From the NCBI RefSeq assembly GCF_963921235.1, contig NC_086107.1:111850001-111914000 (forward strand): a DNA stretch of 64,000 nt, written 5' to 3'. The notes under the pieces are model-generated. The model was not told the DNA's origin and ran no database searches. It saw only the letters and a list, made by a program, of their open reading frames with translations. Made by a program: the position numbers and the translations under genes. The DNA is from Mobula hypostoma. Its lineage: Eukaryota. Below, piece after piece: positions 5,959 through 64,000 of this stretch. Position 1 is the first letter of the stretch. Every line of letters begins with the position of its first letter.

Positions 5959-5986
5959 GAAGGTGTTTGCAGTCAAAATTGCTCAG
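5959..5986 (+). CDS. 28-nt micro-exon (EGVCSQNCS + G), probably just after the signal-peptide exon
   Basis: Strong pyrimidine tract and acceptor ttctctcttttttcatcaacag|GAA, donor CAG|gtgagt. The phase-1 end G joins AT at 22154 to give D-IQVSPVNTT in frame. Confidence 0.65.
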
Positions 5987-26900: not shown

Positions 26901-29900
26901 ACAATTTGCAACAGATATTCAAATTCACATTGAGAATTAATGGAATGAAGAATATTGCGATTTTGGGAATATTGAGATAACAACTTGATAGCATGAATTT
27001 TCAATATCATCTTCTGGGGAAAGAATTTCTCTCTACCTCCTATCTTCTTCTATCCTCACTCTGGCCTCTCACCACTTTTCACCTGCCTATCACCTCCCCC
27101 TGGAACCCCTCCTCCTTCTTCCTTTTCTCCTGTAGGTCACTCACTTCCCCTATCAGATTCCTTCTTCTCCAGAAATATTTTGAGGATGTGACTAAACACG
27201 TTGATGAAGAAAGAGCAGTAGATGTAGTGTATATGGATTTCAGCAAGGCTTTTGATAAGGTACCCCATGCAAGGCCTATTGAAAAAGTAAGGAGGCATGG
27301 GAACCAAGGGGACATTGCTTTGTGGATTCAGAACTGGCTTGCCCACAGAAGGCAAAGAGTGGTTGTAGACGGGTCATATTCTGCATAGAGGTCGGTGACC
27401 GGTGGTGTGCCTCAAGGATCTGTTCTGGGACCCTTACTCTTAGTAATTTTTATAAATGACCTGGATGAGGAAGTGGAGGGAGGGGTTAGTAAGTCTGCTG
27501 ATGACACAAAGGTTGGAGGTGTTGTGGATAGTGTGGAGGGCTGTCAGAGGTTACAGCAGGACATTGATAGGATGCAAAACTGTGCTGAGAAGTGGCAGAT
27601 GGAGTTCAACCCAGATGAAGTGGTTCATTTTGGTAGGTCAAATATGATGGTAGAATATAGTATTAATGGTTAGACTCATGGCAGTGTGGAGGATCAGAGG
27701 GATCTTGGGGTCCGAGTCCATAGGATGCTCAAAGCCGCTGCGCAGGTTGAAGCTGTGGTTAAGAAGGCATACAGTGTATTGGCCTTCATTAATCGTGGAA
27801 TTGCATTTAGGAGCCAAAAGGTAATTTTGCAGCTATATAGGACCCTGGTCAGATCCCACTTGGAGTACTGTGCTCAGTTCTGGTCGCCTCACTACAGGAA
27901 GGATGTGGAAACCATAGAAAGGGTGCAGAGGAGATTTACAAAGATGTTGCCTGGATTGGGGAGCATGCCTTATGAAAACAGGTTGAGTGAACTCAGCCTT
28001 TTCTCCTTGGAGTGACGGAGGATGAGAGATGACCTGATAGAGGTGTATAAGATGATGAGAGGCATTGATCGTGTGGATAGTCAGAGGCTTTTTCCAAGGG
28101 CTGAAAAGATTGCCACAAGAGGACACGGGTTTAAGGTGCTAGGGAGTAGGTACAGAGGAGATGTCAGGGGTAAGTTTTTAACTCAGAGAGTGGTGAGTGC
28201 ATGGAATGGGCTGCCGGCAACGGTGGTGGAGGCAGATATGATAGGGTCTTTTAAGAGACTCTTGGATAGGTACGTGGATCTTAGAAAAACAGAGGGCTAT
28301 GGGGAAGTCTTGTAATTTCTAAGGTAGGGACATGTTCGGCACAACTTTGTTGGGCCAAAGGGCCTATATTGTGCTGTAGGTTTTCTATGTTTTCTGTGGT
28401 TGGGAATGTTACCTTCCCCAACCATCTGGCTTCAACTATCACTTTCTAGCTATCCTGCTTCCCCTCTCCCCCACCTTTTTATTCTGGCATCTTCCTCCTT
28501 CCTTTCCAGTCCTGAAGAAGGGACTTGGTCCAAACTGTCAACTGCTTATTCATTACGTAGGTGCTGCCTGACTTGCTGAGTTCCTCCAGAATTTTGTGTG
28601 CATTGCTCTGGATTTCCAGCATCTGCAGATTTCTCTTGTTACTAATTGTGGTGGTTTGTGATTGAACATTACGGTGTGATGTGTAACGTTTAGATTTTGA
28701 GAAATGAAGTTTGGCTGAACTTCAGCAAGCAGAGTATGAGAACAATTTGCAACTTACTTGCACATTTGACAACAGAAATTTAATGTCATCTTTGAAAATG
28801 AAATAAAGAATATTGGGAAAGATGGGTTAAGTCATAGGATAGCGATCCCTTAGTTTAACATCCACTAATATTAAGATAGGTTTTAATCAAGTTTATGCTA
28901 GATGATGTCAGATATTTCTGTCTGACTGTGAGATCACCACATATCCATACACAAACCAAAGAATAGCACTCATCCTGAAAAGATCACAATGTCCCAGAGC
29001 AATCATGATGGAGGATGTCTTGTACTAATTAACCATCCCTTGTCTTTTATCTTGACAGATCCATCACCAGTCACTGGACTTAATTCAGTAAAGAGGGCAA
29101 CAAATTTGTTAACAATTGAATGGATGAAGCCAAATGATACAAGAGCTGTTAACTATACCTACAGAATTACAGTCACTAATGTGATGGATAATGTCAGTTC
29201 GATCAACTACACAAAAGAAGGCCAGACAAATTTCACAGTGACAGGCCTGAATCCTGGAGTTGAATACAGACTATCAGTGGAGTCAGTAACTCCGGAGCGC
29301 ACACTGAGCTCTCCTGAGGAGGTGACAAACACCACAAGTAAGTAATTCTGTAAGGGTCAATACCTGCTCCACTGTTTCAGTCAACAACAGTTCCATTATT
29401 ATTATGTTTTTAATATTCTTATTGTGTTGTTTATCTTATGGTTTTTTATGCTGTGTTGGATCCAGAGTAACAACTATGTAATTATCCTTACTCTTGTGTC
29501 AAGTAGAGTTACAAGGCAGCTACTTCTTCTTCTTCTTCCTTTCAACCCTTGTGGTGCCTCGGGTAACAACCTCACCATTTCTTTAGCATTTTTGTTTGTT
29601 TTTTACGAGGCCGAGTTGTTAGTTTGATACTCAACCCAGCACAGATGGGAAGTGTGCAAGGAGATGGCTGGATTTGAACCTGGAACCACTCATCTCAAGA
29701 CTGTTTCGGATGTTACTACCCCACTGGCCGGTGATACAAGATAGTCACAGTTTGTGATACATAAGCCGGGAGGAAGTGGAATCGATATGGGTAGAGCTGC
29801 GTAACACTAAGGGGCAGAAGACGCTGGTGGGAGTTGTGTACAAGCCACCTAACAGTAGTAGTGAGGTCGGAGAAGGTATTAAACAGGAAATTAGAAATGT

Positions 29901-32900
29901 GTGCAATAAAGGAACAGCAGTTATAATGGGTGACTTCAATCTACATGTAGGTTGGGTGAACCAAATTGGTAAAGGTGCTGAGGAAGAGGATTTCTTGGAA
30001 TGTACGCGGGATGGTTTTTTGAACCAACATGTCGAGGAACCAACTAGAGAGCAGGCTATTCTGGACTGGGTTTTGAGCAATGAGGAAGGGCTAATTAGCG
30101 ATCTTGTCGTGAGAGGCCCTTTGGGTAAGAGTGACCATAATATGGTGGAATTCTTCATTAAGATGGAGAGTGACATAGTTAATTCAGAAACAAAGGTTCT
30201 GAACTTAAAGAGGGGGAACTTTGAAGGTATGAGACGTGAATTAGCTAAGATAGACTGGCAAATGACACTTAAAGGATTGACGGTGGATATGCAATGGCAA
30301 GCATTTAAAGGTTGCATGGATGAACTACAACAATTGTTCATCCCAGTTTGGCAAAAGAATAAATCAAGGAAGGTAGTGCACCCGTGGCTGACAAGAGAAA
30401 TTAGGGATAGTATCAATTCCAAAGAAGAAGCATACAAATTAGCCAGAGAAAGTGGCTCACCTGAGGACTGGGAGAAATTCAGAGTTCAGCAGAGGAGGAC
30501 AAAGGGCTTAATTAGGAAGGGGAAAAAAGATTATGAGAGAAAACTGGCAGGGAACATAAAAACGGACTGTAAAAGCTTTTATAGATATGTAAAAAGGAAA
30601 AGACTGGTAAAGACAAATGTAGGTCCCCTGCAGACAGAAACAGGTGAATTGATTATGGGGAGCAAGGACATGGCAGACCAATTGAATAATTACTTTGGTT
30701 CTGTCTTCACTAAGGAGGACATAAATAATCTTCCAGAAATAGCAGGGGACAGAGGGTCCAGTGAGATGGAGGAACTGAGCGAAATACATGTTAGTAGGGA
30801 AGTGGTGTTAGGTAAATTGAAGGGATTGAAGGCAGATAAATCCCCAGGGCCAGATGGTCTGCATCCTAGAGTGCTTAAGGAAGTAGCCCAAGAAATAGTG
30901 GATGCAATAGTGATAATTTTTCAAAACTCGTTAGATTCTGGACTAGTTCCTGAGGATTGGAGGGTGGCTAATGTAACTCCACTTTTTAAAAAAGGAGGGA
31001 GAGAGAAACCGGGGAATTATAGACCGGTTAGCCTAACCTCGGTGGTGGGGAAACTGCTGGAGTCAGTTATCAAGGATGTGATAACAGCACATTTGGAAAG
31101 CGGTGAAATGATCGGACAAAGTCAGCATGGATTTGTGAAAGGAAAATCATGTCTGACGAATCTCATAGAATTTTTTGAGGATGTAACTAGTAGAGTGGAT
31201 AGGGGAGGACCAGTGGATGTGGTATATTTGGATTTTCAAAAGGCTTTTGACAAGGTCCCACACAGGAGATTAGTGTGCAAACTTAAAGCACACGGTATTG
31301 GGGGTAAGGTATTGGTGTGGGTGGAGAATTGGTTAGCAGACAGGAAGCAAAGAGTGGGAATAAACGGGACCTTTTCAGAATGGCAGGCGGTGACTAGTGG
31401 GGTACCGCAAGGCTCAGTGCTGGGACCCCAGTTGTTTACAATATATATTAATGACTTGGATGAGGGAATTAAATGCAGCATCTCCAAGTTTGCGGATGAC
31501 ACGAAGCTGGGTAGTAGTGTTAGCTGTGAGGAGGATGCTAAGAGGATGCAGGGTGACTTGGATAGGTTGGGTGAGTGGACAAATTCATGGCAGATGCAAT
31601 TTAATGTGGATAAATGTGAAGTTATCCACTTTGGTGGCAAAAATAGGAAAACAGATTATTATCTGAATGGTGGCCGATTACGAAAAGGGGAGGTGCAACG
31701 AGACCTGGGTGTCATTACACACCAGTCATTGAAAGTGGGCATGCAGGTACAGCAGGCAGTGAAAAAGGCAAATGGTATGCTGGCATTTATAGCGAGAGGA
31801 TTCGAGTACAGGAGCAGGGAGGTACTACTGCAGTTGTACAAGGCCTTGGTGAGACCACACCTGGAGTATTGTGGGCAGTTTTGGTCCCCTAATCTGAGGA
31901 AAGACATCCTTGCCTTAGAGGGAGTACAAAGAAGGTTCACCAGATTGATTCCTGGGATGGCAGAACTTTCATATGAAGAAAGACTGGATGAACTGGGCTT
32001 GTACTCGTTGGAATTTAGAAGATTGAGGGGGGATCTGATTGAAACGTATAAGATCCTGAAGGGATTGGACAGGCTAGATGCAGGAAGATTGTTCCCGATG
32101 TTGGGGAAGTCCAGAACGAGGGGCCACAGTTTGAGGATAGAGGGGAAGCCTTTTAGGACCGAGATTAGGAAAAACTTCTTCACACAGAGAGTGGTGAATC
32201 TGTGGAATTCTCTGCCACAGGAAACAGTTGAGGCCAGTTCATTGGCTATATTTAAGAGGGAGTTAGATATGGCCCTTGTGGCTACGGGGGTCAGGGGGTA
32301 TGGAGGGAAGGCTGGGGCGGGGTTCTGAGTTGGATGAACAGCCATGATCATAATAAATGGCGGTGCAGGCTCGAAGGGCCGAATGGCCTACTCCTGTACC
32401 TATTTTCTATGTTTCTATGTAATAATATGTATTGCCTGAGGTACAGGTGGTGGCAAGCAGAGGGCATCAGGTTCACCCAGCTCAGAAAAGAGTCTCAGGT
32501 CTCAGCTCTTCACAACATGAACTGGGCCGTTGAGTGATGGTTTAGTACACTCTGCATCCATCTCAGTTGCTGTATGGACTACAGCTTCATTTCCTTTATC
32601 TTTAATTTTGTTTAAATACAAAAAGAACTAGAAGTATGAAAAGATGAAAACTGCCACAATGGTACTTCCCAGTGGCAAAAAAGTTTAATTCCCATTCCCA
32701 TTCCAGCTCTGACATATCAGTCCATGCCCTCCTCTTGTGCCAAGGTGAAGCCTCAGGGTGGAAGAGCAACACCATCCATTGCGTCTGGGTAGCCTCCAGA
32801 CTAATGTCATGAATGTCCATTTCTCCTTCTGGCAGAAAAACTCTTCCCCGCCAACCTTCCTCCTCTATTCCCCACTCTGACCTTTCACCTCTTCTCATCT

Positions 32901-35900
32901 ACCTATCACTTCCCCCTAGGTCCCCAACACCTTCCGTTTCTCCCATGGTCAACACTCCTCTCCTGTCAGATTCTTTCTTCTCCAGGCCCTTACCTTTCCC
33001 ATCCACCTGGCTTCACCTATCACCTCCAGCGAGACTCCTACCCCTGCCCCACCTTTTTTAATCTGGCATTTTCCCCCTTCCTTCTCAGTTCTGAAGAAGG
33101 GACACGGCCCGAAATATTGACTGCTTATTCCTCTCCACAGATGCTGACTGACCTGCTGACTTCCACCATCAATTTGTGTATGTTGGTCTGGATTTACCGC
33201 ATCTGCAAATTTCTCCTGTTACTGATTGTGGTGGTCTGTGATTGAACAGCATCGTGTGATGTGTAACGTTTAGAGTCTGAGAAATGAAGTTTGGCTGAAC
33301 TTCAATAAGCAGAATGTTCGAACAATTTGAAACTTACTTGCACATTTGGGAACAGAAATTTCATTTTCGAGAACAAAATCAAGAATATTGGGAAAAGAGG
33401 ATTAAGTCTTAGAATGCCGAACACTTAGTTTAACATCCACTAATTTTAATACAGATTTTAATCAAGTTTATGCGAGATGATAATCTTTTTAATATTAAAA
33501 GGAACTATTAAAAGTAGTGTGCAAAGAAGAAATGGATTTAGCTGGGCTAAGACAGAGCTGCACGGTGTGAAATTTAATGCCATGCTTTTGAAGAATGAAG
33601 TTTGGCTCAACTTCAATAAACAGAGCGTTGCAACAACTTGCAAGACCCTTGCACAATTTGCAACAGATATTCGAATTCACGTTGAGAATTAATGGAATGA
33701 AGAATATTGCGATATCTTCAACTTCCTTACAGACAGGACCCAGGCTGTAAAAATAGGGGACAACTCTCCTCTACAATCACTCCGAGCACCGGTGCCCCAC
33801 AAGGCTGTGTACTCAGCCCCCTGTTGTACTCACTGTACACCCATGATTGTGTAGCCAAGTTTCCATCAAACTCAATATATAAGTTTGCTGATGACACCAC
33901 AATTGTAGGCCATATCTCGGGTAATGATGAGTTTGAGTACAGAGAGGAAATTAAGAACCTGGTGGCATGGTGCGAAGACAATAACCTATCCCTCAACGTC
34001 AGCAAGATGAAGGAGTTGGTTGTTGACTTCAGAAGGAGTAGCGGACCGCACGACCCAATTTACACCAGTGGTGAGCAAGTGGAACAGGTCGAAAGCTTTA
34101 AGTTCCTCAGGGTCAATATCACAAATGGCCTGACTTGATCCAATCAAGCAGAGTCCACTGCCAGGAAGACCCACCAGAGCCTTTACTTCCTGAGAAAACT
34201 AAAGAAATCTGGCCTGTCCCCTAATACCCTCACTAATTTTTATAGATGCACCGTAGAAAGCATACTTCTAGGGTGCATCACAACCTGGTATGGAAGTTGT
34301 CCTGTCCCAGACTGAAAGAAGCTGCAAAAGATCAGGAACACGGAGCAGCACAACACACAAACCAATCTTCCGTCCGTGGACTCACTTTACACCGCACGCT
34401 GTTGGAGCAGTGCTGCCAGGATAATCAAGGACACGACCCACCCAGCCAACACACTTTTCATCCCTCTTCCCTCCGGGAGAAGGCTCAGGAGCTTGAAGAC
34501 TCGTACGGCCAGATTTGGGAACAGCTTCTTTCCAACTGTGATAAGACTGCTGAACGGATCCTGACCCGGATCTGGGCCGTACCCTCCAAATATCCGGACC
34601 TGCCTCTTGGTTTTTTTGCACTACCTTACTTTCCATTTTTCTATTTTCTATTAATGATTTATAATTTAAAATTTTAATGTTTAATAATTTTTACTATTTT
34701 TAATATTTTAATATTTGTAATCCAGGGAGTGGGAAGCGCAGAATCAAATATCGCTGTGATGATTGTACGTTTTAGTATCAAATATTTGTCGACAATAAAG
34801 TATAAGTATAAAGTATTGAGAAAACAACCTGATAGCATGAATGTTCAATTTCATCTTCTGGGAAAAGAATTTCTCTCTACCTCCTATCTTCTTCTATCCT
34901 CACTCTGGCCTCTCACCACTTCTCATTTGCCTATCACCTCCCCCTGGAACCTCTTCTCCTTCCTCCCTTTCTCCTATAGTCCATTCACCTCACATGTCAG
35001 ATTCCTTCTTCTCCAGAACGTTACCTTTCCAAACCATCTGGCTTCAACTATCACTTTCTAGCTATCCTGCTTCTCCTCTCCCCCACCTTTTTATTCTAGC
35101 ATCTTCCTCCTTCATTTCTAGTGCTGAAGAAGGGACTTGGTTCAAACTGTCAACTGCTTATTCATTTACATAGGTGCTGCCTGACTTGCTGAGTTCCTCC
35201 AGCATTTTACATGTGTTGTTATTGGGATAGGTGTGTTAGGTCATTGAATAACCATCTCTTAGTTTAAAATCCTCTGATATTCTCAAAGTCTCCAGTATTC
35301 GCCAATAGTGCAGAAGTCTCACAGTATACACTCTCCCATGGGAGAGACTCCAGGTAATTTTTAATTATATCTATGCCAGATGATGTCAGATATTTCTGTC
35401 TGACTGTGAGGCCAATGCTTATCCATACACAGAGCCAAAGAATAGCACTCACCTTGAAAAGATCACAATATCCCACAGCAATCATGATGAGGATGTCTCA
35501 CACTAATTAACCATCCCTTGTCTTTTCTCCTAACAGATCCATCATCAGTCACTGGACTGTCTGTGGTAAACAGGACCACAAATTCATTGACAATTCAATG
35601 GACAAAGCCAACTGATAGAAGAGCCTCTGACTATACCTACAAAATTACAGTCACTAATGTGATGAATAATGACAAGTGGATCAACAACACAAAAAAAGGC
35701 GAGACAAATTTCACAGTGACAGACCTGCATCCTGGAGACCAATACAAACTATCGGTGGAGTCAGTAACTCCAGAGGGCACACTGAGCTCTCCTGAGAATG
35801 TGACAGACACCACAAGTAAGTAATTCTATAAAAGTCAGTACCTGCTCCAGTGTCTCAATGACAAGATACAGGATGAGCCCATGGCAGTTTAGGAAATGCA

Positions 35901-38900
35901 CTGACATGGACTGAAGATTGGCTGTCTGAGGGATGGCAAAGTGTGGAAATAAAGGGGGCCTCTTCTGAATGGCTGCCAGTAACTAGTGGTGTTCTGCAGG
36001 AGTTGGTGTTGGGTCCATTAGCTCTCGTGTTCTACATTAATGCAAATAATCGAATTGGGACCAACAAGATAGGAAAAGGTGAGACAACGTTCATAGTGAG
36101 AGACCTGGGTCTTGGGGAACAGCACAATCTATCAGTGCAGTCGGTAACTCTGGAGGACACACTGAGCTCTCCTGAGAATGTGACAAACACCACAAGTAAG
36201 TAATTATGTAAGGGTCAATACCTGCTCCACTGTCTTAGTCAACAACAGTTCAAAAATTTTTATGTTTTTAATATCCTTATTGTGTTCGTTATCTTATGAT
36301 TTTTTATGCTGTGTTGGATCCAGAGTAACAACTATTTAATTCTCCTTACTCTTTTGTAGAGTTACAAGGCAGCCACTTCTTCTTGTTGTTCCTTTCCGCC
36401 CCTTGTGGTGGATTGGGTAACAACCTCGCCATTTCTTTAGCATTTTTGTCTGTTTTTCACAAGACTGGGTTGTTAGTTTGATACTCAACCTAGCACAGAT
36501 GGGAAATGTGCAAAGGAGATGGCTGGATTTGAGCCTGGGACCATTCGTCTCAAGACTGTTTCGGATGTCACTATCCCACTGGCCGGTGATACAAGATAGT
36601 CACAGTTCGTAATAATATGTATTGCCTGAGGTACAGGTGGTGGCGAGCAGAGGGCATCAGGTTCACCCAGCTCAGAAAAGAGTCTCAGATCTCAGCTCTT
36701 CACTACATGAATTTGGCTGTTTGAGTGATGGTTCAGTACACTATGCATCCTTCTTAGATGCTGTATGGGCTATAGCTGCATTTCCTTTTTCTTCAATTTT
36801 GTTTAAATACCAAAAAGAACTAGAGGTACGAAAAGATGAAAACTAATTGTGGGGACCACTTTAACTGCCACAAACTGAACTTCCCGGTGGCCAAAAATTT
36901 TAATTGCCATTGACTTTCAAGTTCTGACATGTCAGTCCATGCCCATGCCCTCCTCTTGTGCCATGATGAGGCCTCCCTTCGCATGGAGGAGCAAACGTTA
37001 TATTCCGTCTGGGTAGCCTCTAACCTGGAGGCATGAATATTGATTTCTCCTTCCCGTAGAAAAACTACCCACCCCCATTACCCTCTTCCTCTATTCCCCA
37101 CTCTGACCTTGCCATTACCCTCACCTACCTATCACTTCCCCCTAAGTCCCTAATACTTTCTCTTTCTCCCATGGTCCACTCTCATCTCCCTTCAGATTCC
37201 TCTCTTCTCCAATCCCTTACCTTTCCCATCCACCTGGCATCACCTATCACCTTCTAGCCAGCTCCTTCTCCTTCCCTAAATTTCTTTTCCGGCATTTTCC
37301 CCCTTCCTTCTCAGACCTGAGGAAAGGTCTTGGCCTGAAATGTCAACTGCTTATTCCTCTCCATTGATGCTGCCTGACCTGCTGAGTTCCTCCAGCATTT
37401 TGTGTGTGTTGCTCTGGATTTCCAGCATATGCAGATTTCTCTTGTTACTAATTGTGGTGGTCTGTGTTTGAACAGTACGGAGTGATGAGAAATGCTTAGA
37501 TTTTGAGAAATGGAGTTTGGCTGAACTTCAGCAAGCAGAGTATTAGAACACTTTGCAACTTACTTGCACATTTGACAACAGAAATTTAATTTTATTTTTG
37601 AGAATGAAATGAAGAATATTGGGGAAGGTGGATTAAGTTTTAGAATGGCGATCTCTTAGTTTAACATCCACTAATATTAATGCAGATTTTAATCAAGTTT
37701 ATCCTTGATGATGTCAGATATTTCTGCCTGACTGTGAGATCACCGCCTATCCATACACAGAGCCAAAGAATAGCACTCACCTTGAAAAGATCACAATATC
37801 CCACAGCAATCATGATGAGGATGTCTCACACTAATTAACCATCCCTTGTCTTTTCTCCTAACAGATCCATCATCAGTCACTGGACTGTCTGTGGTAAACA
37901 GGACCACAAATTCATTGACAATTCAATGGACAAAGCCAACTGATAGAAGAGCCTCTGACTATACCTACAAAATTACAGTCACTAATGTGATGAATAATGA
38001 CAAGTGGATCAACAACACAAAAAAAGGCGAGACAAATTTCACAGTGACAGACCTGCATCCTGGAGACCAATACAAACTATCGGTGGAGTCAGTAACTCCA
38101 GAGGGCACACTGAGCTCTCCTGAGAATGTGACAGACACCACAAGTAAGTAATTCTATAAAAGTCAGTACCTGCTCCAGTGTCTCAATGACAAGATACAGG
38201 ATGAGCCCATGGCAGTTTAGGAAATGCACTGACATGGACTGAAGATTGGCTGTCTGAGGGATGGCAAAGTGTGGAAATAAAGGGGGCCTCTTCTGAATGG
38301 CTGCCGGTAACTAGTGGTGTTCTGCAGGAGTTGGTGTTGGGTCCATTAGCTCTCGTGTTCTACATTAATGCAAATAATCGAATTGGGACCAACAAGATAG
38401 GAAAAGGTGAGACAACGTTCATAGTGAGAGACCTGGGTCTTGGGGAACAGTACAATCTATCAGTGCAGTCGGTAACTCTGGAGGACACACTGAGCTCTCC
38501 TGAGAATGTGACAAACAGCACAAGTAAGTAATTATGTAAGGGTCAATACCTGCTCCACTGTCTTAGTCAACAACAGTTCAAAAATTTTTATGTTTTTAAT
38601 ATCCTTATTGTGTTCGTTATCTTATGATTTTTTATGCTGTGTTGGATCCAGAGTAACAACTATTTAATTCTCCTTACTCTTTTGTAGAGTTACAAGGCAG
38701 CCACTTCTTCTTGTTGTTCCTTTCCGCCCCTTGTGGTGGATTGGGTAACAACCTCGCCATTTCTTTAGCATTTTTGTCTGTTTTTCACAAGACTGGGTTG
38801 TTAGTTTGATACTCAACCCAGCACAGATGGGAAATGTGCAAAGGAGATGGCTGGATTTGAGCCTGGGACCATTCGTCTCAAGACTGTTTCGGATGTCACT

Positions 38901-50900: not shown

Positions 50901-53900
50901 CCTTTTCCAGGTAGTCCACCAGCAGCACTCCCTTTGCATCCCAGAAGACGGAGGCCATCACCTTGCCTGCGGACGTCACTGACTTGGCTTTCTTGGGAGC
51001 CGGAGGTCCTGGGTGTTTCCACTGTTTCTATTGTTCTTTCGTCTCTGGTTGGAAGCGGTGGATCCAAGTCTCATCCATGGTTACAAGTTGCTGGAGGAAT
51101 CTCTCGGGATCTGCCTCAAAAATGGCTAGATTGTCCCTTGACATGTTGTGCTGAATCCGCTTCTCATCAGGCCCAAGGAGTTTCGGGACCCAGCGAGCTG
51201 ACACCTTGGTCATTTTGGAGTTCGTTGTAGATAACTGCATGGACACATTCCTGGGAGATACCCAACTCTGTGGCAATTTACCGCTGTGTTATTCATCGAT
51301 CTGTCAAGATCATGTCATGGATCTTGTCAATGGTCTGTGTGGTGATGGTGACAGATCTTCCAGGATGGGGGTCGTCTTCCAGGCTCTCTCTGCCATGTTT
51401 GAATTCAGCAGCCCACTTCTTCACCATGCGGTAAGAAGGGGCACCCTCCCCTCGTGTTACCACCCTGTCCTCAAGGATCTCCTTGGGTGATAAGCCCTTG
51501 AGACCCAGGTAGCAGATGACTGTATGAAGGCCGATGTTGTCCATTTTCTCAGACAGTGCTTACTTGCAACTTTCAATTATCTGAAACAGAAATACCATAA
51601 AAGTTATTAACTTCAAAATTTCTGCATAATCACTCAAAGCGTTGAATTGCAAGTGCGTGTAACGAGAGCTTCTTCTTCTACCTTGGATCACGAACGTATC
51701 AATCACCCCTCGTATATAGTTAGGATACCTAGAAGTTTTGCATAGTACTGTAGTAATTTTATGTATTGCACTGTATTGCTGCCGCAAAAAAAAACACATT
51801 TCGTGACATATTTAAGTGATGATAAATCTGATTCTTATATGGGTCCCTATTATGCGCTGAGAGTGGAGAGGGGGCAGGAAGAGGGGAATCATGGATGGGA
51901 AAAGTGGAAGGGAGAGGGGAGGGAGTGGGGAGCACCAGCGAGGCATTCTGTAATGATCAATAAACCAATTGAATGGAATTGAATGACCTTGCCTGGTGTC
52001 TCAGTGCTGGGTTTGCCTGCACCCATGCCATTCCCCTGCCCCAGAACTCCTTCTCTGCCACCTGTCCTACATCCCTCCATCACCACTCCCAACATCATTT
52101 ACAAACTCACTCTCTGCTTCACATTGACAAATACAATACTGTGCAAAGGTCTTAGGCACCCTAGTTATATATACGTACCTAAGTCTTTTCCACAGTACTT
52201 TCTATATCAACTAAATTAAATAAGTAATGCAAAAATAAAGGAAAGAAAAATACTGAGGTAGTATTGATGGGTTCAACGTCCATTCAGAAATCTGATGGCG
52301 GAGGGGAAGAAACTGTTCCTGAAACGTTAAGTATGTGTCTTCAGGCTCCTGTACCTCCTTCCTGATGGTAGCAATGAGAAGAGGGCATGTTCTGGGTGAT
52401 GGGGTCCTTGATGATAAATGTTGTCTTTTTGAGGCATCGCTCCCTGAAGATGTCCTGGATACTAGGGAGGCTAGTGCCCGTGATACAGCAGACTAAGTTT
52501 ACAACTCTCTGCTGCTTACTTCAATCCTGTGTAGTAGCGACCCCTCCCCGGCCCCCAAACCAGATGGTGATGCAGCCAGTCAGAATGCTTTCCACAGCAC
52601 ACCTCCAGAAATTTTCAAGTGTTTTAAGTGACAAACCAAATCTCCTCAAACTCCTAATGAAATATAGCCACTGCCTTGCCTTTTTTATAGCTGCATCGAT
52701 ACGTTGGGACCAGGTTAATTCCTCAGGGATATTAGCACCCAGCGACTTGAAATTGCTCACTCTCTCCAAATCTGATCCCTCTATGAGGATTGGTTTGTGT
52801 TCCCTCATCTTACCCTTTCCCCCTTTCCGAAGTCCACAATCAGCTCTTTGGTCTTACTGACATTGAGTGCAAGGTTGTTGCTGTGATACCACTCAACTAG
52901 CTGGTATATCTCACTCCTGTACGTCCTCTCATTGCCATCTGAGATTCAGTGCACGTCCTGGGTGCTGGGGTGAGGATCGCGGCAATGTTTTGACATATCT
53001 GAACGAAAATATGATTTTCCCTTAATTTTCTGCATGAATAGTGAACTGAGATGGATAAGATTTTGGGGTCAGACTCTCATGTGTAACTGTTTCATATTAA
53101 AGTGAGCCTCTGCAAAGTGCTTTCTGATGGGAGCGATTACTAAATCTCCACACACTGAAAGTGCAGCAGCTGATGATGTTGAAGGCAACATATTGACCAA
53201 CCATGAACACAGACAGAAGCAGTCAGAGGCAGACTGGACGTGCACGCAGATTAGCTCAGAAGAGAGTGAAAGGTTTTCTCTATAGCATTGGGGGACTGTG
53301 TTGATGTTTTTGTAATCAATGCATCTGTCTCCGCTGATGCAGGGACTGCTGTTGCATTTCCTGCAGCCAAAGTTTGTTTTTGTTAAAAAATCAAGAGGAG
53401 CTAACAGGATGAAAAGAGGAAAAATGTTTTTGCTGTTCAATGAATGTGCTTCTCAGTGTAAAAGTTGTCACCAAGCTTTTAAAGAAACACATACAGAATG
53501 CTGAAGGAACTGAGCAGGCCAGGTAGCTTCTATGGAAAAGAGTAAGCATTCGATGTTTCAGGCCAAGACCCTTCATAAATCCTGTAGAAAGGCCTCAACC
53601 CAAAACGTCAACTGTTTACTCTTTTCCAAAGCAGCTGCCTCACCTGCTGAGTTCCTCCAGCATTTTGTGTGTGTTGCTTTGGATTTCAAACATCTGCTGT
53701 TTTTTTCCTGTTTTTGTAAAGTTTTTAAAGAAGTCAGCTGGCCACTGGTGTGCTGCCATCTGCACTGGACTTTGGGGTGAGTGGTCCTGGATTCAGATCT
53801 GACCGGCTCTTTGCACGCCTTCCATCCGTGCTGAGTTGAGCATCGAGCTACCAACTCGGCCTCATAAAACAGACAAATGCAAACAAATTGACAAGGTTGC

Positions 53901-56900
53901 CACCTGATGCACCAAACAAGATGCAGGAGGGAACTTTACCTTTTACCTTTTACCTAAGAAGCCGCTGGAAACTCTGCTTAAGCCACAAATGATATACCCT
54001 CTGTGGTCACTTTATTGGATATCTCCTGTGCCTAATAAAGTGGCCACTGAGTGTATGTTCATGGTCCTCTGTGCTGTAGCCCATCCACTTCAAGGTTCGA
54101 TGTGTTGTGCATTCCGATGCTCTTCTGCACACCACTTTTGTAACATGTGGTTATTTGAGTTACTGTCGCCTTCCTGTCAGCTTGAACCAGTCTGGCCATT
54201 CTCCTCTGACCTCTCCCATTAACAAGGCATTTTCACCCACAGAACTTGCGCTCACTGGATGTTTTATTTTTGCACCATTCCCTGTAAACTCTAGAGACTG
54301 TTGTGCATGAACATCCCAGGAGATCAGGAGATCAACAGATTCTGAGATACTCAAATCACCCTGTCTGGCATCAACAATCATTCCCCAGTCAAAGTCACTT
54401 CGATCACATTTCTTCCCCATTCTGATGTTTGGTCTAAACAACAACTGAACCTCTTGACCACATCTGCATGCTTTTATGCATTGAGTTGCTGCCACTTGAT
54501 TGGCTGATTGGATTCCAATAATGAGCTGGTGTACAGGCGTACCTAATAAAATGGCCACTGAGCGTACATCTCCAGATAAGTGAGTGCCAGAAATTTTCTA
54601 AAGAATTTCTCATACCTGGATCCCCTCAATGTATGGCTTTAGTCACTGATAACCCACATCCAAAGGCTAAAGACTAGCACATACCTCGCACTGGAGCCCA
54701 CTGCATGGGCGGTTTCTCACACCAATTAACCCTCTCTCTGCCATTCTCTTGACAGATCCATCATCAGTCACTAATCTCTCTGTGGTCAACAGTACAACGG
54801 TCTCATTTGAATTAAAATGGACAGCACCAAATGACTCAAGAGCCTCTGACTATACCTACAATATCACTGCTACCAGAGTTGCTAGCAGATCTAGCTACAG
54901 AGATCTAAATACTGGTGTTAGCACATCTTCAGTCACAGATCCAGGCAGTACAGAGTTCAACGTGACGGGACTGGTTCCAGGGGAACAATACGAGCTAACC
55001 GTGAAGTCAGTCACTCCCGAGAACACCCTGAGCGCCCCTGTGATGGTGACAAACACCACAAGTAAGTAATTCTATAAAAGTCAGTACCTGCTACACTGTC
55101 TCAATGACAAGATACAGGATGAGCCCATGGCAGTTTAGGAAATGCACTGACATGGACTGAAGATTGGCTGTCTGAGGGACGGTAAAGAGTGGAAATAAAG
55201 GGGGCCTCTTCTGCATGGCTGCTGGTAACTAGTGGTGTCCTGCAGGACTTGGTGTTGGGTCCATTGGCTCTCGTGTTCTACATTAATGCAAATAATCGCA
55301 TTGGGACCAACAAGACAGGAAAAGGTGAGACAACGTTCATAGTGAGAGACCTAGATCTTGGGGATCAGTACAATCTATCAGTGCAGTCGGAAACTCTGGA
55401 GGATACACTGAGCTCTCCTGAGGAGGTGACAAACACCACAAGTAAGTAACAGTGGAGGAGTATAAAAAACTATTAATTATGCAACCAAAATTACTACTTG
55501 GGCCCTTAGCTCCCCATAGAGCATAGGCCATTGATGACCTCCCACCTCTATCGTCTCTGAAGTCAATGGTACTCCAGGACTGATTCCAGGATTGAAGAGC
55601 TTGTCATATGATGAGCGTTTGATGCCTGTGGGCCTGTATTCACTGGAATTCAGAAGAATAAGGGGTGACCTAATTGAAACCTATCGAATGGTGAAAGGCC
55701 GTGATAGAGTGGATGAGGAGAAGATGTTTCCTATGGTGGCAGAGTCTAAGACCAGAGGACACTTTCTCAGAATAGAGGGGTGTCTTTTTAAATGGAGATG
55801 GGGAGGGATGTCTTTAGCCAGAGGGTGGTGTATCTGAAGAATTCATTGCCACAGGCAAACGTGGAGGCCAAGTCTTTATGTATATTTAAGGCAGAGGTTG
55901 ATAGATTCTTGATTAGTCAGGACACGAAGGGATAAGGGGGAAAAGGCAGCAGATTGGGGCTGAGAGGAAAGTTGGACCAGCCATGATGCAATGGCGGAGG
56001 AGACTCGATAGGTTAAATGGCCTAATTCTGCTCCTATATCTTATGGTCTTATGGTATGGTTAGAGTTCATCAATGCTTCTGTAATCCATTTCTACCCACG
56101 GTACAGGGGATTTCCCTATACAGCTTCACCAGAGCCCTGTTCACCAGCCTTACTCATTTCCACCTCTCCTGATGGGGGTGTAGGGTTAGATTTTAAGAGA
56201 AATACAAATTTACAGACTCTAATATCATTGGCGGTGACAGTCGAACAAGATGCACAAGTCCAGGTGAGACAGTACTCATGTTGAAAAAACTTATCTCTGG
56301 GCCCCAAAACAAGCTGATGGTGGAGCCTGTCATTCCTGGAAGAACACTGAGTTCCCCCGAGAAAGTGGCAAACAGCACAAACTGGTGAACCAAAGAACGA
56401 ATTGCTTGAGGAACTCAGCAGGTCAAGCAGCATCTGTGGAGGAAAGGATTTGTCAAAGTAGCCAGTGTAAATGGGAGTGGGGAGACGAGGGACAGTAGGT
56501 GATTGGTGGACTGAGAAGCAGTGAAGGGTTATAGGCAGGTGAACTCAGGTGAGGATAGGGTGAAGCTGGGAGACAGAGGGAGATGGATGACAAAGAAGTA
56601 AACAAGGCAGAGAGAGCCGCATGGGGATGCAGGCCAGTTGCTGTATCACTGCAACACTGATTCCTGGCCAAGATATAGTTCTTAAAATGCTCTCTTCATG
56701 GTGGCCTGGGACAATGTCATAATTACCTGTAAACGAAAACTATTTTAAAATTTGTTATGTGTTCTTTCCTGGTTTAGCTCAGAGTATTCGCAAGCGAAGG
56801 AGACGACACACATGTTCAAGGCCACAGGAGAACTCTTTACTAGAACTAGCACAAATCCAATACAGAAATAAATAAATAAATGTGTTATGTGGGAGCAGCA

Positions 56901-59026
56901 GAGAAATCAGAATGGCAGTTTGGCAGTTCAAGTGATGGTTTAGTACACTATCCATCCTTCTTAGATGCTGATGGGCTATAGCTTCATTTCCCTTTTCTTC
57001 AATTTTGTTTCAATACCAAAAAGAACTAGAGGTACGAAAAGATGAAAACTAATTGTGGGGACCACTTTATCTGCCACAAACCGAACTTCCCAGTGGCCAA
57101 AAATTTTAATTCCCATTGACATTCCAGTTCTGACATGTCAGTCCATGCCCATGCCCTCCTCTTGTGCCGTGACGAGGCCTCCCTTAGCATGGAGGAGCAA
57201 ACGTTGTATTCCGTCTGGGTAGCCTCTAACCTGGAGGCATGAATATTGATTTCTCCTTCCCGTAGAAAAACTACCCACCCCCATTACCCTCTTCCTCTAT
57301 TCCCCACTCTGACCATGCCATTACCCTCACCTACCTATCACTTCCCCCTAAGTCCCTAATACTTTCTCTTTCTCCCATGGTCCACTCTCATCTCCCTTCA
57401 GATTCCTTCTTCTCCAGTCCCTTACCTTTCCCATCCACCTGGCATCACCTATCACCTTCCAGCCAGCTCCTTCCCCTTCCCTAAATTACTTTTCCGGCAT
57501 TTTCCCCCTTCCTTCACAGTCCTGAGGAAGGGTCTTGGCCTGAAATGTCAACTGCTTATTCCTCTCCACAGATGCTGCCTGACCTGCTGAGTTCCTCCAG
57601 CATTTTGTGTGTGCTGCTCTGGATTTCCAGCATATGCAGATTTCTCTTGTTACTAGTTGTGGTGGTCTGTGATTGAACAGTATGGAGTGATGAGAAATGC
57701 TTAGATTTTGAGAAATGGAGTTTGGCTGAACTTCAGCAAGCAGAGTATTAGAACACTTTGCAACTTACTTGCACATTTGACAACAGAAATTTAATTTTAT
57801 TTTTGAGAATGAAATGAAGAATATTGGGAAAGGTGGGTTAAGTTTTAGAATGGCGATCTCTTAGTTTAACATCCACTAATATTAATGCAGATTTTAATCA
57901 AGTTTATGCTAGATGATGTCAGATATTTCTGCCTGACTGTGAGATCACCGCCTATCCATACACAGAGCCAAAGAATAGCACTCACCTTGAAAAGATCACA
58001 ATATCCCACAGCAATCATGATGAGGATGTCTCACACTAATTAACCATCCCTTGTCTTTTCTCCTAACAGATCCATCATCAGTCACTGGACTGTCTGTGGT
58101 AAACAGGACCACAAATTCATTGACAATTCAATGGACAAAGCCAACTGATAGAAGAGCCTCTGACTATACCTACAAAGTTACAGTCACTAATGTGATGAAT
58201 AATGACAAGTGGATCAACAACACAAAAAAAGGCGAGACAAATTTCACAGTGACAGACCTGCATCCTGGAGACCAATACAAACTATCGGTGGAGTCAGTAA
58301 CTCCAGAGGGCACACTGAGCTCTCCTAAGAATGTGAAAAACACCACAAGTAAGTAATTCTGTAAGGGTCAATACCTGCTCCACTGTCTCAGTCAACAACA
58401 GTTCCATTATTATTATGTTTTTAATATTCTTATTGTGTTCGTTACCTTATGGTTTTTTCTGCTGTGTTGGATCCAGAGTAACAACTATTTAATTCTCCTT
58501 ACTCTTGTATCAGGTTGAGTTACAAGACAGCCATTTTTTCTTGTTGTTCCCTTCCGCCCCTTGTGGATTGCATTGGGTGACAACCTTGCCATTTATTTAG
58601 CATTTTTGTCTGTTTTCTATGAGGCTGAGTTGTTAGTTTGATACTCAACCTAGCACAGATGGGAAGTGTGCAAGGAGATGGCCGGATTTGAGCCTGGACC
58701 CACTCGACTCGCACTAATTAACCATCCCTTGTGTTTTCTCTTGACAGATGCATCATCAGTCACTGAACTTAATGCAGTAGAGAGGACAACAATTTCATTA
58801 AAAATTGAATGGATAGAGCCATCTGATAGAAGAGCCTCTGACTATACCTACAGAATTACAGTCACTAATGTGATGGATAATCACAGTTGGATCAACAACA
58901 CAAAAAAAGGCGAGACAAATTTCACAGTGACAGACCTGCATCCTGGAGACCAATACAAACTATCGGTGGAGTCAGTAACTCCAGAGGACACACTGAGCTC
59001 TCCTGAGAATGTGACAGACACCACAA
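5959..59026 (+). CDS. Partial multi-exon gene (span of exons in window): FN3-repeat ectodomain, probably receptor-type tyrosine-protein phosphatase R3 subfamily (PTPRJ/PTPRH-like)
   Basis: A micro-exon and 12 FN3 exons with canonical AG/GT sites join in frame. Domains have the FN3 pattern (P..V..L...TT.SL.I.W..P....Y.I.V...F.V..L.PG..Y.L.V.SV) and many N-glycosylation sequons. Family assignment is inferred from architecture; no TM or PTP exon is visible. Confidence 0.7.
6782..6930. repeat. Degenerate 24-bp minisatellite, 6 units plus a partial unit
   Basis: Units start at 6782, 6806, 6830, 6854, 6878, 6902 and 6926 with a (c/t)ac(c/t) anchor. Confidence 0.8.
7586..8039 (-). mobile_element. 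CR1 3' fragment nested in a sense CR1 fragment (about 7560-8225)
   Basis: RLNKLGLYSLERRSLRGDLIEVFKIM...; ataaccat-repeat tail; host CR1 reads through tggaactcat|tgccaca. Confidence 0.85.
8785..9440 (-). mobile_element. CR1 3' fragment
   Basis: cataagaacataag tail and antisense CR1 ORF2 C-terminus. Confidence 0.8.
9520..10290 (-). mobile_element. Rex1/Babar 3' fragment
   Basis: IIRDPHHPDHALFLLLPSSRRYRSLRTRT. Confidence 0.75.
10487..10724. mobile_element. Penelope-like terminus pair in inverted orientation, with hammerhead motif
   Basis: Arms of about 95 bp are reverse complements; 13-bp TSD gaagctatatcca at 10474-10486 and 10725-10737. Confidence 0.85.
10631..10666 (+). ncRNA. Minimal type I hammerhead ribozyme motif
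   Basis: agtc CUGACGA a ggg ucucgg ccu GAAA cg UC gacu: stem I agtc/gact, stem II, core boxes, palindromic ACGU stem III. Confidence 0.7.
10750..11570 (+). mobile_element. CR1 3' fragment
   Basis: KWEMEFN..KC-like sequence; MRGDLIEVYKIMR. Confidence 0.8.
11750..12080 (-). mobile_element. Degenerate CR1 3' fragment
   Basis: LYSLERDLIEVY; CR1 3' UTR. Confidence 0.7.
13040..13275 (-). mobile_element. Tc1 transposase C-terminal fragment
   Basis: WPPQSPDLNIIETVWDYL motif. Confidence 0.8.
13470..13615 (+). mobile_element. Second tRNA-derived SINE family (copies at about 53735-53870 and 62985-63125; antisense in array units, e.g. 36400-36585)
   Basis: ggccagtggtgtaatagc...ggttcgaaacc head followed by shared body ctttccatc.gtgctgggttgag. 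Confidence 0.65.
14305..14865 (-). mobile_element. Tc1-derived non-autonomous element
   Basis: MGKKCALSDFDCGMIAGARWGGLSISETADLL; taataaagtggccact repeats near both ends. Confidence 0.85.
15035..15395 (+). mobile_element. CR1 3' fragment
   Basis: YKMMRGID...KFFTQRVV..WNGLP; ttctatgtttctat tail. Confidence 0.85.
15596..15632 (-). ncRNA. Minimal type I hammerhead ribozyme motif in a short Penelope-like insertion
   Basis: Reverse complement reads agtcctgacgaagggtctcggcctgaaacgtcgactg. Confidence 0.65.
16235..17170 (-). mobile_element. CR1 fragment interrupted by a sense CR1 fragment (about 16592-16945)
   Basis: LRKDVLALERVQRRFT on the minus strand; nested DLIELYKMMRGID on the plus strand with ttctatgt tail. 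Confidence 0.8.
17665..18420 (-). mobile_element. Penelope-like element 3' part (GIY-YIG plus pyrimidine-rich tail)
   Basis: VVYYVWCSWHGLLYIGETHRKLG; AFHRDPFLRDSLV; degenerate terminal motif. Confidence 0.8.
18493..19053 (+). mobile_element. Tc1-derived non-autonomous element
   Basis: cactcagtggccactttat...taataaagtggccactg ends; same internal sequence as other copies. Confidence 0.85.
20130..20817 (+). mobile_element. GC-rich non-coding element with Rex-like tail (related copy at about 21130-21641)
   Basis: Internal repeats atttaagc...gccgaat.ggaaag; ends aataaatgtgctttgaactttgaacttt like the Rex tail at 3190. Confidence 0.55.
22154..22384 (+). CDS. FN3 exon 1 (divergent, 231 nt)
   Basis: cctag|AT acceptor, ACAA|gtaagt donor; DIQVSPVNTTALKI...LKPGTNYNISIHV...LSTAT. 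Confidence 0.85.
23705..24085 (-). mobile_element. CR1 3' fragment
   Basis: TRGHDLGIEGRPFKREMRRNFFRQ.LVNLWNSLP. Confidence 0.8.
24975..25425 (+). mobile_element. Penelope-like 3' tail
   Basis: tggcatgaacatcgatttctcc, CT-rich tract, cagtcctgatgaagggtctcagcccaaaacgttgactg. Confidence 0.75.
27175..28403 (+). mobile_element. CR1 LINE 3' fragment with stop codons
   Basis: YMDFSKAFDKV, GVPQGSVLGP, SADD; ttctatgt tail; interrupts sequence that is continuous near 35005. Confidence 0.95.
29059..29337 (+). CDS. FN3 exon 2 (279 nt)
   Basis: ttgacag|ATCCA, ACAA|gtaagt; PSPVTGLNSVKRATNLLTIEW...GLNPGVEYRLSVESVT. Confidence 0.9.
29756..32419 (+). mobile_element. CR1 LINE, 5'-truncated, uninterrupted 850-codon ORF2 (endonuclease C-terminal part plus RT)
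   Basis: MGDFN, SDH, YRPVSLTS, LDFQKAFD, GVPQGSVLGP and FADD motifs; 3' tail ttctatgtttctatgt; empty site visible in sister units. Confidence 0.97.
33714..34813 (+). mobile_element. Rex1/Babar-clade LINE 3' fragment
   Basis: TGAPQGCVLSPLLYSLYTHDC, KFADDTTIVG, NNLSLNVSK.KELVVDFRR; aagtat-repeat tail; empty site near 44480 and 26960. Confidence 0.9.
35537..35815 (+). CDS. FN3 exon type A, copy 1
   Basis: ctaacag|ATCCA, ACAA|gtaagt, 279 nt, phase 1/1. Confidence 0.88.
36022..36195 (+). pseudogene. 3' half of an FN3 exon fused to a CR1 RT fragment (copy 1; others at 38350-38523, 40678-40851, 47647-47820, 49975-50148, 55268-55441, 59233-59406)
   Basis: KGETTFIVRDLGLGEQ(H/Y)NLSVQSVTLEDTLSSPENVTNTT with intact gtaagt donor; upstream is CR1-like SEWLPVTSGVLQELVLGPL instead of the normal acceptor and 5' half. 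Confidence 0.75.
37865..38143 (+). CDS. FN3 exon type A, copy 2
   Basis: Same translation and splice sites as copy 1, offset 2328. Confidence 0.88.
40193..40471 (+). CDS. FN3 exon type A, copy 3
   Basis: Same translation and splice sites, offset 2328. Confidence 0.88.
42521..42799 (+). CDS. FN3 exon type A, copy 4 (PEDT variant)
   Basis: Offset 2328; PEGT changed to PEDT; splice sites intact. Confidence 0.88.
45214..45492 (+). CDS. FN3 exon type B (mosaic of exon-2-like 5' part and A-like 3' part)
   Basis: ttgacag|ATCCA...ACAA|gtaagt; NDTRAVNYTY and NVSSINYTK shared with exon 2, TDLHPGDQYKL shared with A. Confidence 0.88.
47162..47440 (+). CDS. FN3 exon type A, copy 5
   Basis: Same translation and splice sites as copy 1. 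Confidence 0.88.
49490..49768 (+). CDS. FN3 exon type A, copy 6
   Basis: Same translation, offset 2328 from copy 5. Confidence 0.88.
50433..51712 (-). mobile_element. Full-length mariner transposon (1280 bp), frameshifted transposase
   Basis: About 40-bp TIRs cgaggggtgattgatac..., TA on both sides; SARWVPKLL, TMDETW, HQDNAPAH and SPDLAPSDY motifs split over several ORFs. Confidence 0.95.
52200..52950 (-). mobile_element. Rex1/Babar fragment (duplicate at about 61465-62215)
   Basis: ERVSNFKSLG.NI.EELTWS..IDAAIKKARQWLYFIRSLRRFG. Confidence 0.8.
53995..54565 (-). mobile_element. Tc1-derived non-autonomous element (duplicate at about 63250-63812)
   Basis: MGKKCDRSDFDWGMIVDARQGDLSISE; same termini. 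Confidence 0.85.
54756..55061 (+). CDS. FN3 exon type C (306 nt, longer central loop)
   Basis: ttgacag|ATCCA...ACAA|gtaagt; PSSVTNLSVVNSTTVSFELKW...GLVPGEQYELTVKSVT. Confidence 0.9.
55580..56052 (+). mobile_element. CR1 3' fragment
   Basis: LSYDERL..GLYSLEFRRIRGDLIETY; tcttatgg-repeat tail. Confidence 0.85.
56203..56380 (+). pseudogene. Decayed FN3 pseudo-exon
   Basis: Manual translation YKFTDSNIIGGDSRTRCTSPGETVLMLKKLISGPQNKLMVEPVIPGRTLSSPEKVANST aligns without gaps to type A YKITVTN...GETNFTVTDLHPGDQYKLSVESVTPEGTLSSPENVTDTT; donor is lost (actggt). Confidence 0.75.
58070..58348 (+). CDS. FN3 exon type A, copy 7 (4 substitutions)
   Basis: Splice sites intact; I>V, E>K, T>K, D>N relative to A. 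Confidence 0.88.
58748..59026 (+). CDS. FN3 exon type D
   Basis: ttgacag|ATGCA...ACAA|gtaagt; ASSVTELNAVERTTISLKIEW... Confidence 0.88.
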
Positions 59027-59696
59027 GTAAGTAATTCTATAAAAGTCAGTACCTGCTCCAGTGTCTCAATGACAAGATACAGGATGAGCCCATGGCAGTT
59101 TAGGAAATGCACTGACATGGACTGAAGATTGGCTGTCTGAGGGACGGCAAAGTGTGGAAGTAAAGAGGGCCTCTTCTGAATGGCTGCCGGTAACTAGTGG
59201 TATTCTGCAGGAGTTGGTCTTCGGTCCATGAGCTCTTGTGTTCTACATTAATGCAAATAATCGAATTGGGACCAACAAGACAGGAAAAGGTGAGACAACG
59301 TTCATAGTGAGAGACCTGGGTCTTGGGGATCAGTACAATCTATCAGTGCAGTCGGTAACTCTGGAGGACACACTGAGCTCTCCTGAGGAGGTGACAAACA
59401 CCACAAGTAAGTAATTCTACAGGAGTTAGTGCCTCGGAACCTGATCCTACATCTGAACCAGTCAGTACTGAAGCAAACCTTACCCTTTAATATCACCGGC
59501 ATAGGTCATGAAATTTGTTGTTATGCAGCAGCAGTACATTGCAATAACTAATAACAAAAATATAAATTACAATTTTATATATATTTTTTGATCTGAAGAA
59601 TACACTTTACAATGGTCTGGACACTACATGAGTGACATAAACTGGGGTCACTGGGTATATATCTACAGTATTGTGCATAAGTCTCAGGTACATATA

Positions 59697-63900: not shown

Positions 63901-64000
63901 CCACATCCAAAGGCTAAAGACTAGCACACACCTCGCACTGGAGGCCACTGCATGGGCGGTTTCTCACACCAATTAACCCTCTCTCTGCCATTCTCTTGAC

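Follow-up and report, generated by a model that had tools for sequence, protein, structure and literature searches.

That proteins evolve by tandem duplication of symmetric domain exons is textbook knowledge. In the kringle IV-2 array of LPA, the long homologous repeats of CR1 and the SRCR repeats of DMBT1, tandem units of exon plus intron each add a folded domain in frame; arrays of this type are thought to change by unequal crossing-over, and copy-number polymorphism is the hallmark of LPA. Here we describe a comparable array in the devil ray Mobula hypostoma, within a 64,000 nucleotide (nt) stretch of contig NC_086107.1 (forward strand, positions 111,850,001 to 111,914,000; hereafter the window, numbered from its first letter). 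The array lies in a gene labelled PTPRH-like and resembles the LPA, CR1 and DMBT1 arrays in its near-identical, in-gene tandem units of exon plus intron, each of which adds a whole domain in frame. It differs from them in that one exon encodes one FN3 domain per 2.3-kb unit and in that the product is a transmembrane phosphatase; the array is described from a single genome sequence.

The closest described proteins are the vertebrate receptor protein tyrosine phosphatases (RPTPs) of the R3 group (PTPRH/SAP-1, PTPRJ/CD148/DEP-1, PTPRB and PTPRO), which have the same ectodomain of FN3 type only, one transmembrane segment, one protein tyrosine phosphatase (PTP) domain and a C-terminal YxN motif. 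The number of FN3 repeats in the R3 group is given as six to seventeen, with eight in human SAP-1 (PMC9900141), and a phylogenetic study of the group, which describes the C-terminal YxN tyrosine motif as an R3 feature, speaks of "high variability in FN3 repeats" (PMC5336234). The M. hypostoma protein differs in having 13 Pfam fn3 stretches together with N-terminal and membrane-proximal domains, and in owing most of its FN3 domains to very recent amplification of one exon. No description of the locus, or of turnover of FN3 exon arrays in R3 enzymes, came up in literature searches, nor one of the particular combination seen here (a marked repeat unit, recombinant exons and species-wide concerted evolution of R3 FN3 arrays); the main text of a preprint on manta and devil ray genomes mentions neither PTPRH, phosphatase nor fibronectin. 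The case is not categorically new, as the gene is annotated and the mechanism is of a known kind. We consider it very probable that the region is the ectodomain part of an R3-type RPTP gene and, jointly with this, that its FN3 exons form a long-standing array in fast turnover (concerted evolution) rather than one in simple net growth.

The identity of the gene is clear from its full extent. The spliced product is letter for letter RefSeq XP_062918971.1 (M. hypostoma, 1615 amino acids (aa), isoform X2), which maps by exact peptide matches to 25 segments between window coordinates -19871 and +105008 and is labelled by NCBI "receptor-type tyrosine-protein phosphatase H-like"; the gene is therefore already annotated and not new. 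The first exon is 19.9 kb upstream of the window. An earlier note on this DNA, made from the letters of the window, had proposed an R3 RPTP and suggested that the spliced protein be compared with RPTP families and that TM (transmembrane) and PTP exons be sought downstream. Both were found in the same gene, 5-41 kb past the window, and the family call stands. Two upstream exons within the window had been overlooked. The exons on either side of the array are as follows:

5959..5986, + strand: mini-exon of 28 nt, residues 36-44 of the RefSeq model, with an AG acceptor and a GTGAGT donor (exact mapping)
22154..22384, + strand: exon of the N-terminal 77-aa domain, phase 1-1, residues 45-121 (exact mapping, splice sites seen)
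from 67159, past the window end, + strand: membrane-proximal FN3 exon (exact mapping)
from 69035, past the window end, + strand: TM exon (exact mapping)
74885-105008, past the window end, + strand: exons for one PTP domain and the cytoplasmic part (exact mapping)

In an independent genome search with Pfam Y_phosphatase, PTP exons came up at window coordinates +90.8, +96.9 and +99.3 kb, on the strand of the array and 27-35 kb beyond its window. In the 1708-aa isoform X1, Pfam returned 13 fn3 stretches and one Y_phosphatase stretch (residues 1441-1673, E 2.6e-86), and beyond fn3 the only ectodomain matches were to overlapping FN3-like or Ig-like families; the N-terminal 77-aa domain searched alone matched no Pfam family. 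The same isoform has a single hydrophobic span, IIIGAIMGSLLGLILIGVLLFFIF, intact catalytic motifs (HCSAGVGRTG and WPDHGVP) and, after the PTP domain, two C-terminal YxN motifs, YENQ at residue 1686 and YENA at 1694. The best single-domain matches in the PDB were all R3 enzymes: rat VE-PTP (363 bits), PTPRJ (353), PTPRB (327), PTPRH (314), PTPRO (285-294), Ptp10D (278) and PTPRQ (271). Two-domain phosphatases outscored these because two stretches add up. PTPRJ scored above PTPRH, whereas the NCBI label is H-like; the gene may be the orthologue of either. A protein search with the cytoplasmic part returned mainly two-domain phosphatases and no tetrapod PTPRH or PTPRJ. A protein search with one type A exon (defined below) gave 32 matches, comprising four carp titins and 28 elasmobranch proteins; 27 of the latter are labelled PTPRH-like or H by NCBI (one skate isoform as "eta-like") and the other is a "hypothetical protein". 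By homology, the gene is predicted to encode a type I membrane phosphotyrosine phosphatase whose FN3 domains make up a rod.

Eleven FN3 exons were located on the + strand between 29059 and 59026 by a scan for the FN3 exon start motif, ten of 279 nt and one of 306 nt. Each has a pyrimidine tract with an AG acceptor, the donor ACAA|GTAAGT and symmetric phase 1-1, which confirms the 11 phase-1/1 exons with intact splice sites of the earlier note, and all three exon types scanned matched Pfam fn3 (E 3.9e-13, 2.5e-11 and 3.9e-10). The exons, with the repeat units that they head, are listed here; "relic" denotes a half-exon described further on.

29059..29337, + strand: FN3 exon d1, 279 nt, an older type with 43 differences from type A (motif scan, mapping)
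35537..37864, + strand: unit 1, 2328 bp, with A exon 35537-35815, 61 nt of intron, a reverse transcriptase (RT) fragment of a long interspersed nuclear element (LINE) at 35877-36045, relic B' at 36046-36195, and intron
37865..40192, + strand: unit 2, 2328 bp, with A exon 37865-38143 and relic 38374-38523
40193..42520, + strand: unit 3, 2328 bp, with A exon 40193-40471 and relic 40702-40851
42521..42799, + strand: recombinant A/B' exon heading a 1948-bp unit (exon alignment, flank comparison)
45214..45492, + strand: mosaic FN3 exon, in isoform X1 and skipped in X2 (exon alignment)
47162..49489, + strand: unit 5, 2328 bp, with A exon 47162-47440 and relic 47671-47820
49490..49768, + strand: fifth identical type A exon, its unit alike for 669 nt only, with relic 49999-50148
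54756..55061, + strand: long FN3 exon L1, 306 nt, with a relic behind it at about 55292-55441
58070..58348, + strand: type A-like exon with four differences from A, all nonsynonymous, and a d1-type downstream flank
58748..59026, + strand: mosaic FN3 exon with a relic behind it at about 59257-59406
63955..64000, + strand: pyrimidine tract of the L2 acceptor, on which the window ends ("...ctcttgac") (exact mapping)
64003..64308, + strand, outside the window: long FN3 exon L2, 306 nt, with its AG at 64001-64002 (exact mapping)

The five type A exons (35537, 37865, 40193, 47162 and 49490), which had been noted as having the same translation, are nucleotide-identical. Their start-to-start spacing within the units is 2328 bp, and the four complete units (from 35537, 37865, 40193 and 47162) differ from one another without gaps at 3-6 of 2328 positions (0.13-0.26%), each carrying private variants. 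The earlier note had counted five near-identical units; this holds for four, the unit at 49490 matching over 669 nt only. Its other observations on the array fared well: the bases after the window are AG followed by a 306-nt FN3 exon, each type A domain carries four sequons (NRT, NNT, NFT and NVT), and the small divergence between units agrees with a very recent event. The repeats were found by repeat search and self-BLAST, Tandem Repeats Finder having returned no rows with its longest period of 500, below the unit length; a search of the animal's own genome found the 2328-bp units at this locus only. RefSeq isoform X2 uses ten of the eleven window FN3 exons and skips exon 45214, which isoform X1 contains, while isoform X3 (1606 aa) is 102 aa below X1, the size of one long FN3 exon. 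Every RefSeq isoform retains six type A exons, the five identical copies and 42521.

The units carry a marker of their own history, overlooked in the earlier note: seven relic half-exons, each about 380 nt behind an FN3 exon. Relic B' is the 3' half of a second FN3 exon, joined in frame to a LINE RT fragment, with its own donor and intron kept; it appears in no RefSeq model and is a dead half-exon. Over its final ~45 nt and the intron behind them, it matches exons 45214 and 42521 exactly (no mismatches in 60 flank positions). Exon 42521 has one difference from type A, at exon position 241, and no mismatches in 60 to the flank of exon 45214; it thus combines an A body with a 3' end and downstream intron of the B'/45214 type, with no LINE fragment, in a unit shorter by 380 bp (1948 bp). 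It is therefore read as an A/B' recombinant from which the 380 bp between both exons were removed. Two other exons are mosaic. Exon 45214 differs from A at 33 positions, 31 of them in exon positions 9-172, and exon 58748 at 23 positions, 22 of them in positions 3-140. Just 5' of exon 45214, the intron departs from the A type at no more than 9 of 298 sites, as against 31 of 172 in the 5' part of the exon. We infer that these three exons are the signature of unequal crossing-over or gene conversion.

Since every FN3 domain is encoded by a single symmetric (phase 1-1) exon within a unit of about 2 kb, such exchanges change whole 93-residue modules and the frame is kept; unequal crossing-over or gene conversion between units would add, remove or overwrite modules. 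The events may be ordered as follows. Originally, there would have been an ancestral array of ~1.95-kb units, common to this gene and to a tandem paralogue downstream. Next, one exon would have been truncated in its middle by a deletion and fused there to a LINE fragment, creating relic B'. A block of ~9.26 kb would then have been duplicated. Finally, and very recently, amplification of the 2328-bp block of A exon, relic and intron would have yielded 5-6 copies. In other sharks and rays, the same process would have left each species with its own homogenised FN3 set.

Comparison with other elasmobranchs bears directly on this last point. We counted FN3 domains with a profile built from this gene's FN3 exons and applied to protein models:

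M. hypostoma, isoform X2: 12 (11 strong and a weak membrane-proximal domain); 13 with exon 45214 of X1
manta, X2: 9 (8 strong and a weak membrane-proximal domain)
7 of 9 other elasmobranch models of this gene (gene 1): 10-11
Pristis: 6
Scyliorhinus: 7

Across 11 elasmobranch orthologues the FN3 domains group by species. A tree was built from 119 FN3 domains of 15 proteins, with an alignment of 93 columns and many forks unresolved. On this tree the species labels require 34 changes, against a mean of 91.7 when shuffled; none of 200 shuffles needed so few. All eight type A-like domains fall together in a clade free of manta domains (support by the SH-like approximate likelihood ratio test, SH-aLRT, 89), and another clade is made up of five manta domains (SH-aLRT 90). 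The nearest domain was in the same protein for 12/12 domains in M. hypostoma, 7/8 in manta, 10/10 each in Rhinoraja, Narcine and Carcharodon, 9/11 in Hemitrygon, 9/11 in Amblyraja, 8/10 in Hypanus and 5/6 in Pristis; the pattern was weaker in Leucoraja (6/11) and Scyliorhinus (3/7). Repeats are accordingly more alike within a species than at matching positions between species, and mosaic repeats with breakpoints (42521, 45214 and 58748) accompany this pattern.

The contrast is sharpest between the two Mobula species. Relative to the manta orthologue, the N-terminal domain is identical at 72/77 residues, the membrane-proximal FN3 at 82/89 and the cytoplasmic part at 325/329, whereas type A matches no domain of manta gene 1 at more than 65/89 and the two genes have no close FN3 in common. 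A preprint on the reference assembly of the species puts the split of the two mobulids at ~20 million years. Judging from these alignments, the middle of the ectodomain has evidently been replaced between the two species within that time, while the ends of the protein remained 92-99% identical.

A tandem paralogue situated about 74 kb beyond the end of the window provides a further point of reference:

about +137.8 to +202 kb in window coordinates (contig positions 111987835-112051900): tandem paralogue

RefSeq labels it PTPRH-like as well, with 629-698 aa and three FN3 domains. It has the same architecture and the same ~1.9-kb unit as the present gene, and its introns and exons are 85-90% identical to this gene's unit, so the ~1.9-kb unit is older than both genes. 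Its third FN3 exon with the upstream intron shows 89% DNA identity to the type A unit, and at 74/93 residues type A is closer to this domain than to any domain of manta gene 1 (65/89). The paralogue differs in the stability of its array, domains 2 and 3 pairing one-to-one between both Mobula species (SH-aLRT 98 and 92). In M. hypostoma, the region from +164.2 to +175.6 kb gave no match for two PTP-domain exons corresponding to residues ~469-525 of the manta model (including NRYANILPYD); its three RefSeq isoforms are 56-125 aa below the manta model, and the one examined likewise lacks that PTP part. The paralogue may be catalytically impaired in this species.

The domain counts also bear on whether the array can be called "expanding", as the earlier note had it, a description that they support only in part. 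A modest net gain is apparent in this species; most relatives, on the other hand, have 10-11 domains, a stingray isoform (Hemitrygon) reaches 1700 aa, and domains cluster by species, so that the count proposed as a check places M. hypostoma above manta and close to most elasmobranch models. The strongest competing account is pure recent net expansion, along the lines of the earlier note, with the array growing in this lineage, polymorphic in copy number, and with selection tuning the length of the ectodomain. The minimal divergence between units speaks for it, as does the difference between the 1708 aa of isoform X1 and the 1408 aa of the manta model, or between 12 and 9 domains in the X2 models, which is made of FN3 modules. 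However, with a stingray isoform equally long and seven of nine other gene-1 models at 10-11 FN3, the length is not unusual, which argues for turnover with homogenisation more than for steady growth; and each species has its own near-identical set, whose identity homogenisation explains without net growth. We regard pure expansion as possible but unlikely.

Public read data provided a view of both the assembly and expression. Logan contigs of four runs were compared with window positions 34000-37650. Two of the runs, X5 and X6, are guessed to be RNA and are not recorded as such. In these, the A-exon contig reached a depth of 3163 (X5) and 213 (X6), as compared to 5-16 (X5) and 3-11 (X6) for contigs on the introns of this locus, and one X6 contig begins exactly at exon base 35537. 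These figures hint that type A exons are present in mature RNA and that relic B' is absent from it. On the favoured reading, all copies would be spliced into one mRNA. Under a second competing account, the copies exist in DNA and are mostly skipped in splicing, as cassette or mutually exclusive exons, leaving the protein no longer than before. The RefSeq isoforms do differ by single FN3 exons (X2 without 45214, X3 smaller than X1 by 102 aa), but the strong splice sites are identical in all copies, the six type A exons are kept in every isoform, and the A exon is strongly enriched over introns in both guessed RNA runs, which together make general skipping improbable.

The assembly itself was considered in the same way. 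In DNA run X1, contigs matching sequence present five times in the assembly had depths of 57.4, 61.2 and 62.5, the A-exon contig, present six times, had a depth of 82.6, and variant or indel paths with one divergent contig, inferred to be single-copy relatives, had depths of 7-15. As a weak check, these depths fit the assembled copy number. The preprint on the reference assembly of the species reports nanopore sequencing with reads up to >100 kb, short-read polishing, purged duplicates and one collapsed haplotype. Should the window be part of that assembly, the array could be spanned by long reads. An artefact of assembly or polishing, with a true locus of fewer or more divergent units, is the least probable account, marginally below general skipping. 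Near-identical 2.3-kb repeats are error-prone and the preprint reports polishing and duplicate purging, but the depths scale with copies, the units hold private variants, and many long nanopore reads are reported.

Fast turnover of a long-standing array remains the reading that we favour, and several points weigh against it. The FN3 counts of other species rest on gene models, unchecked on DNA, and RefSeq XP models are predictions. Contig depth is one figure per contig and gives no copy number, and DNA run X1 may derive from the assembled individual itself. If the window comes from the assembly described in the preprint, polishing may have inflated the likeness of near-identical repeats. The number of identical exons in an mRNA cannot be read from short-read contigs, and no A-to-A splice joint appeared among 15 of 810 joints listed, mostly from parts rich in transposable elements.

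Another run, X8, is a DNA run of a related species. It contained a 448-nt contig 91% identical to the unit intron (window 36513-36952) with a depth of 181, while several neighbouring contigs had depths of 37-60; the homologous intron may be multicopy in that relative too. At 90% likeness, X8 gave almost no cover for the type A exon in its 3' part.

Transposon pieces and an older duplication complete the description of the array:

29758..32328, + strand: LINE ORF2 (open reading frame 2) in the intron between the first two FN3 exons, 856 aa, stop-free, with endonuclease and RT (Pfam RVT_1 E 7.3e-34, Exo_endo_phos_2 E 2.2e-08)
49450..55069, + strand: first copy of the older ~9.26-kb duplication (A exon, relic, mariner-like element, long FN3 exon), 96.9% identical to 58708-64316 (self-BLAST)

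The LINE may be a young element, and the RT fragment fused to the relic half-exons is of the same kind as the RT of this ORF2. In five of the seven relic copies, LINE fragment and relic form one open frame of 108 aa (35877-36203 in unit 1), for which no Pfam family match was found in unit 1. Exonisation of this frame was considered and set aside: the copies are too young for an open frame to be meaningful, and the sole contig fitting the relic in X5 had an intron-level depth of 14.9. A higher X5 figure in the relic bin may reflect real exons, 90% alike, laid across it. The remnants at 50498-51559 and 59762-60823 (both - strand) we take, from their motifs, to be mariner/Tc1-like transposases; one piece scanned, the ORF fragment at 50498-50869 (- strand), had no Pfam family match. 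The mariner-like copies are older than the ~9.26-kb duplication, because they were carried along in it.

A further question is what selection has done with these modules. The ectodomain contains 65 N-X-S/T sequons. Between exon types, the ratio of nonsynonymous to synonymous divergence (dN/dS) ranged from 1.02 to 2.54 in the 12 pairs with dS above zero, a range drawn from small numbers, mosaic exons and no codon model. All differences are nonsynonymous between L1 and L2 (seven), between A and 58070 (four), between 42521 and 58070 (five) and between A and 42521 (one). These patterns suggest weak constraint or diversifying selection on FN3 surfaces. A bolder idea, which we hold to be doubtful, is that the FN3 array is a fast-cycling, species-specific coding macrosatellite under diversifying selection, not drift, with standing copy-number polymorphism. 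It rests on the replaced mid-ectodomain, protein ends that are 92-99% identical, and mostly amino-acid-changing substitutions between exon types.

Mammalian SAP-1 (PTPRH), with its eight FN3 repeats, is described as mainly expressed in intestinal epithelium (PMC9900141). If the macrosatellite idea were true, it would suit an ectodomain in contact with an external partner that itself evolves, such as gut microbes or parasites at the epithelial brush border; alternatively, it would suit an ectodomain whose length and glycan load are adaptively tuned. The locus is an unusually clean and young example of its kind: its units are 99.7-99.9% identical, their descent can be followed through the dead half-exon, recombinant exons reveal the mechanism, and the FN3 set was fully replaced between two congeners while the neighbouring paralogue stayed stable. 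CD45 and CD148 are regarded as being kept out of close contacts according to the size of their ectodomains. Should copy number differ between individuals, the array would offer an R3 phosphatase with naturally graded ectodomain lengths and glycan loads; such a series, if real, could test ideas about the size-dependent sorting of receptor phosphatases.

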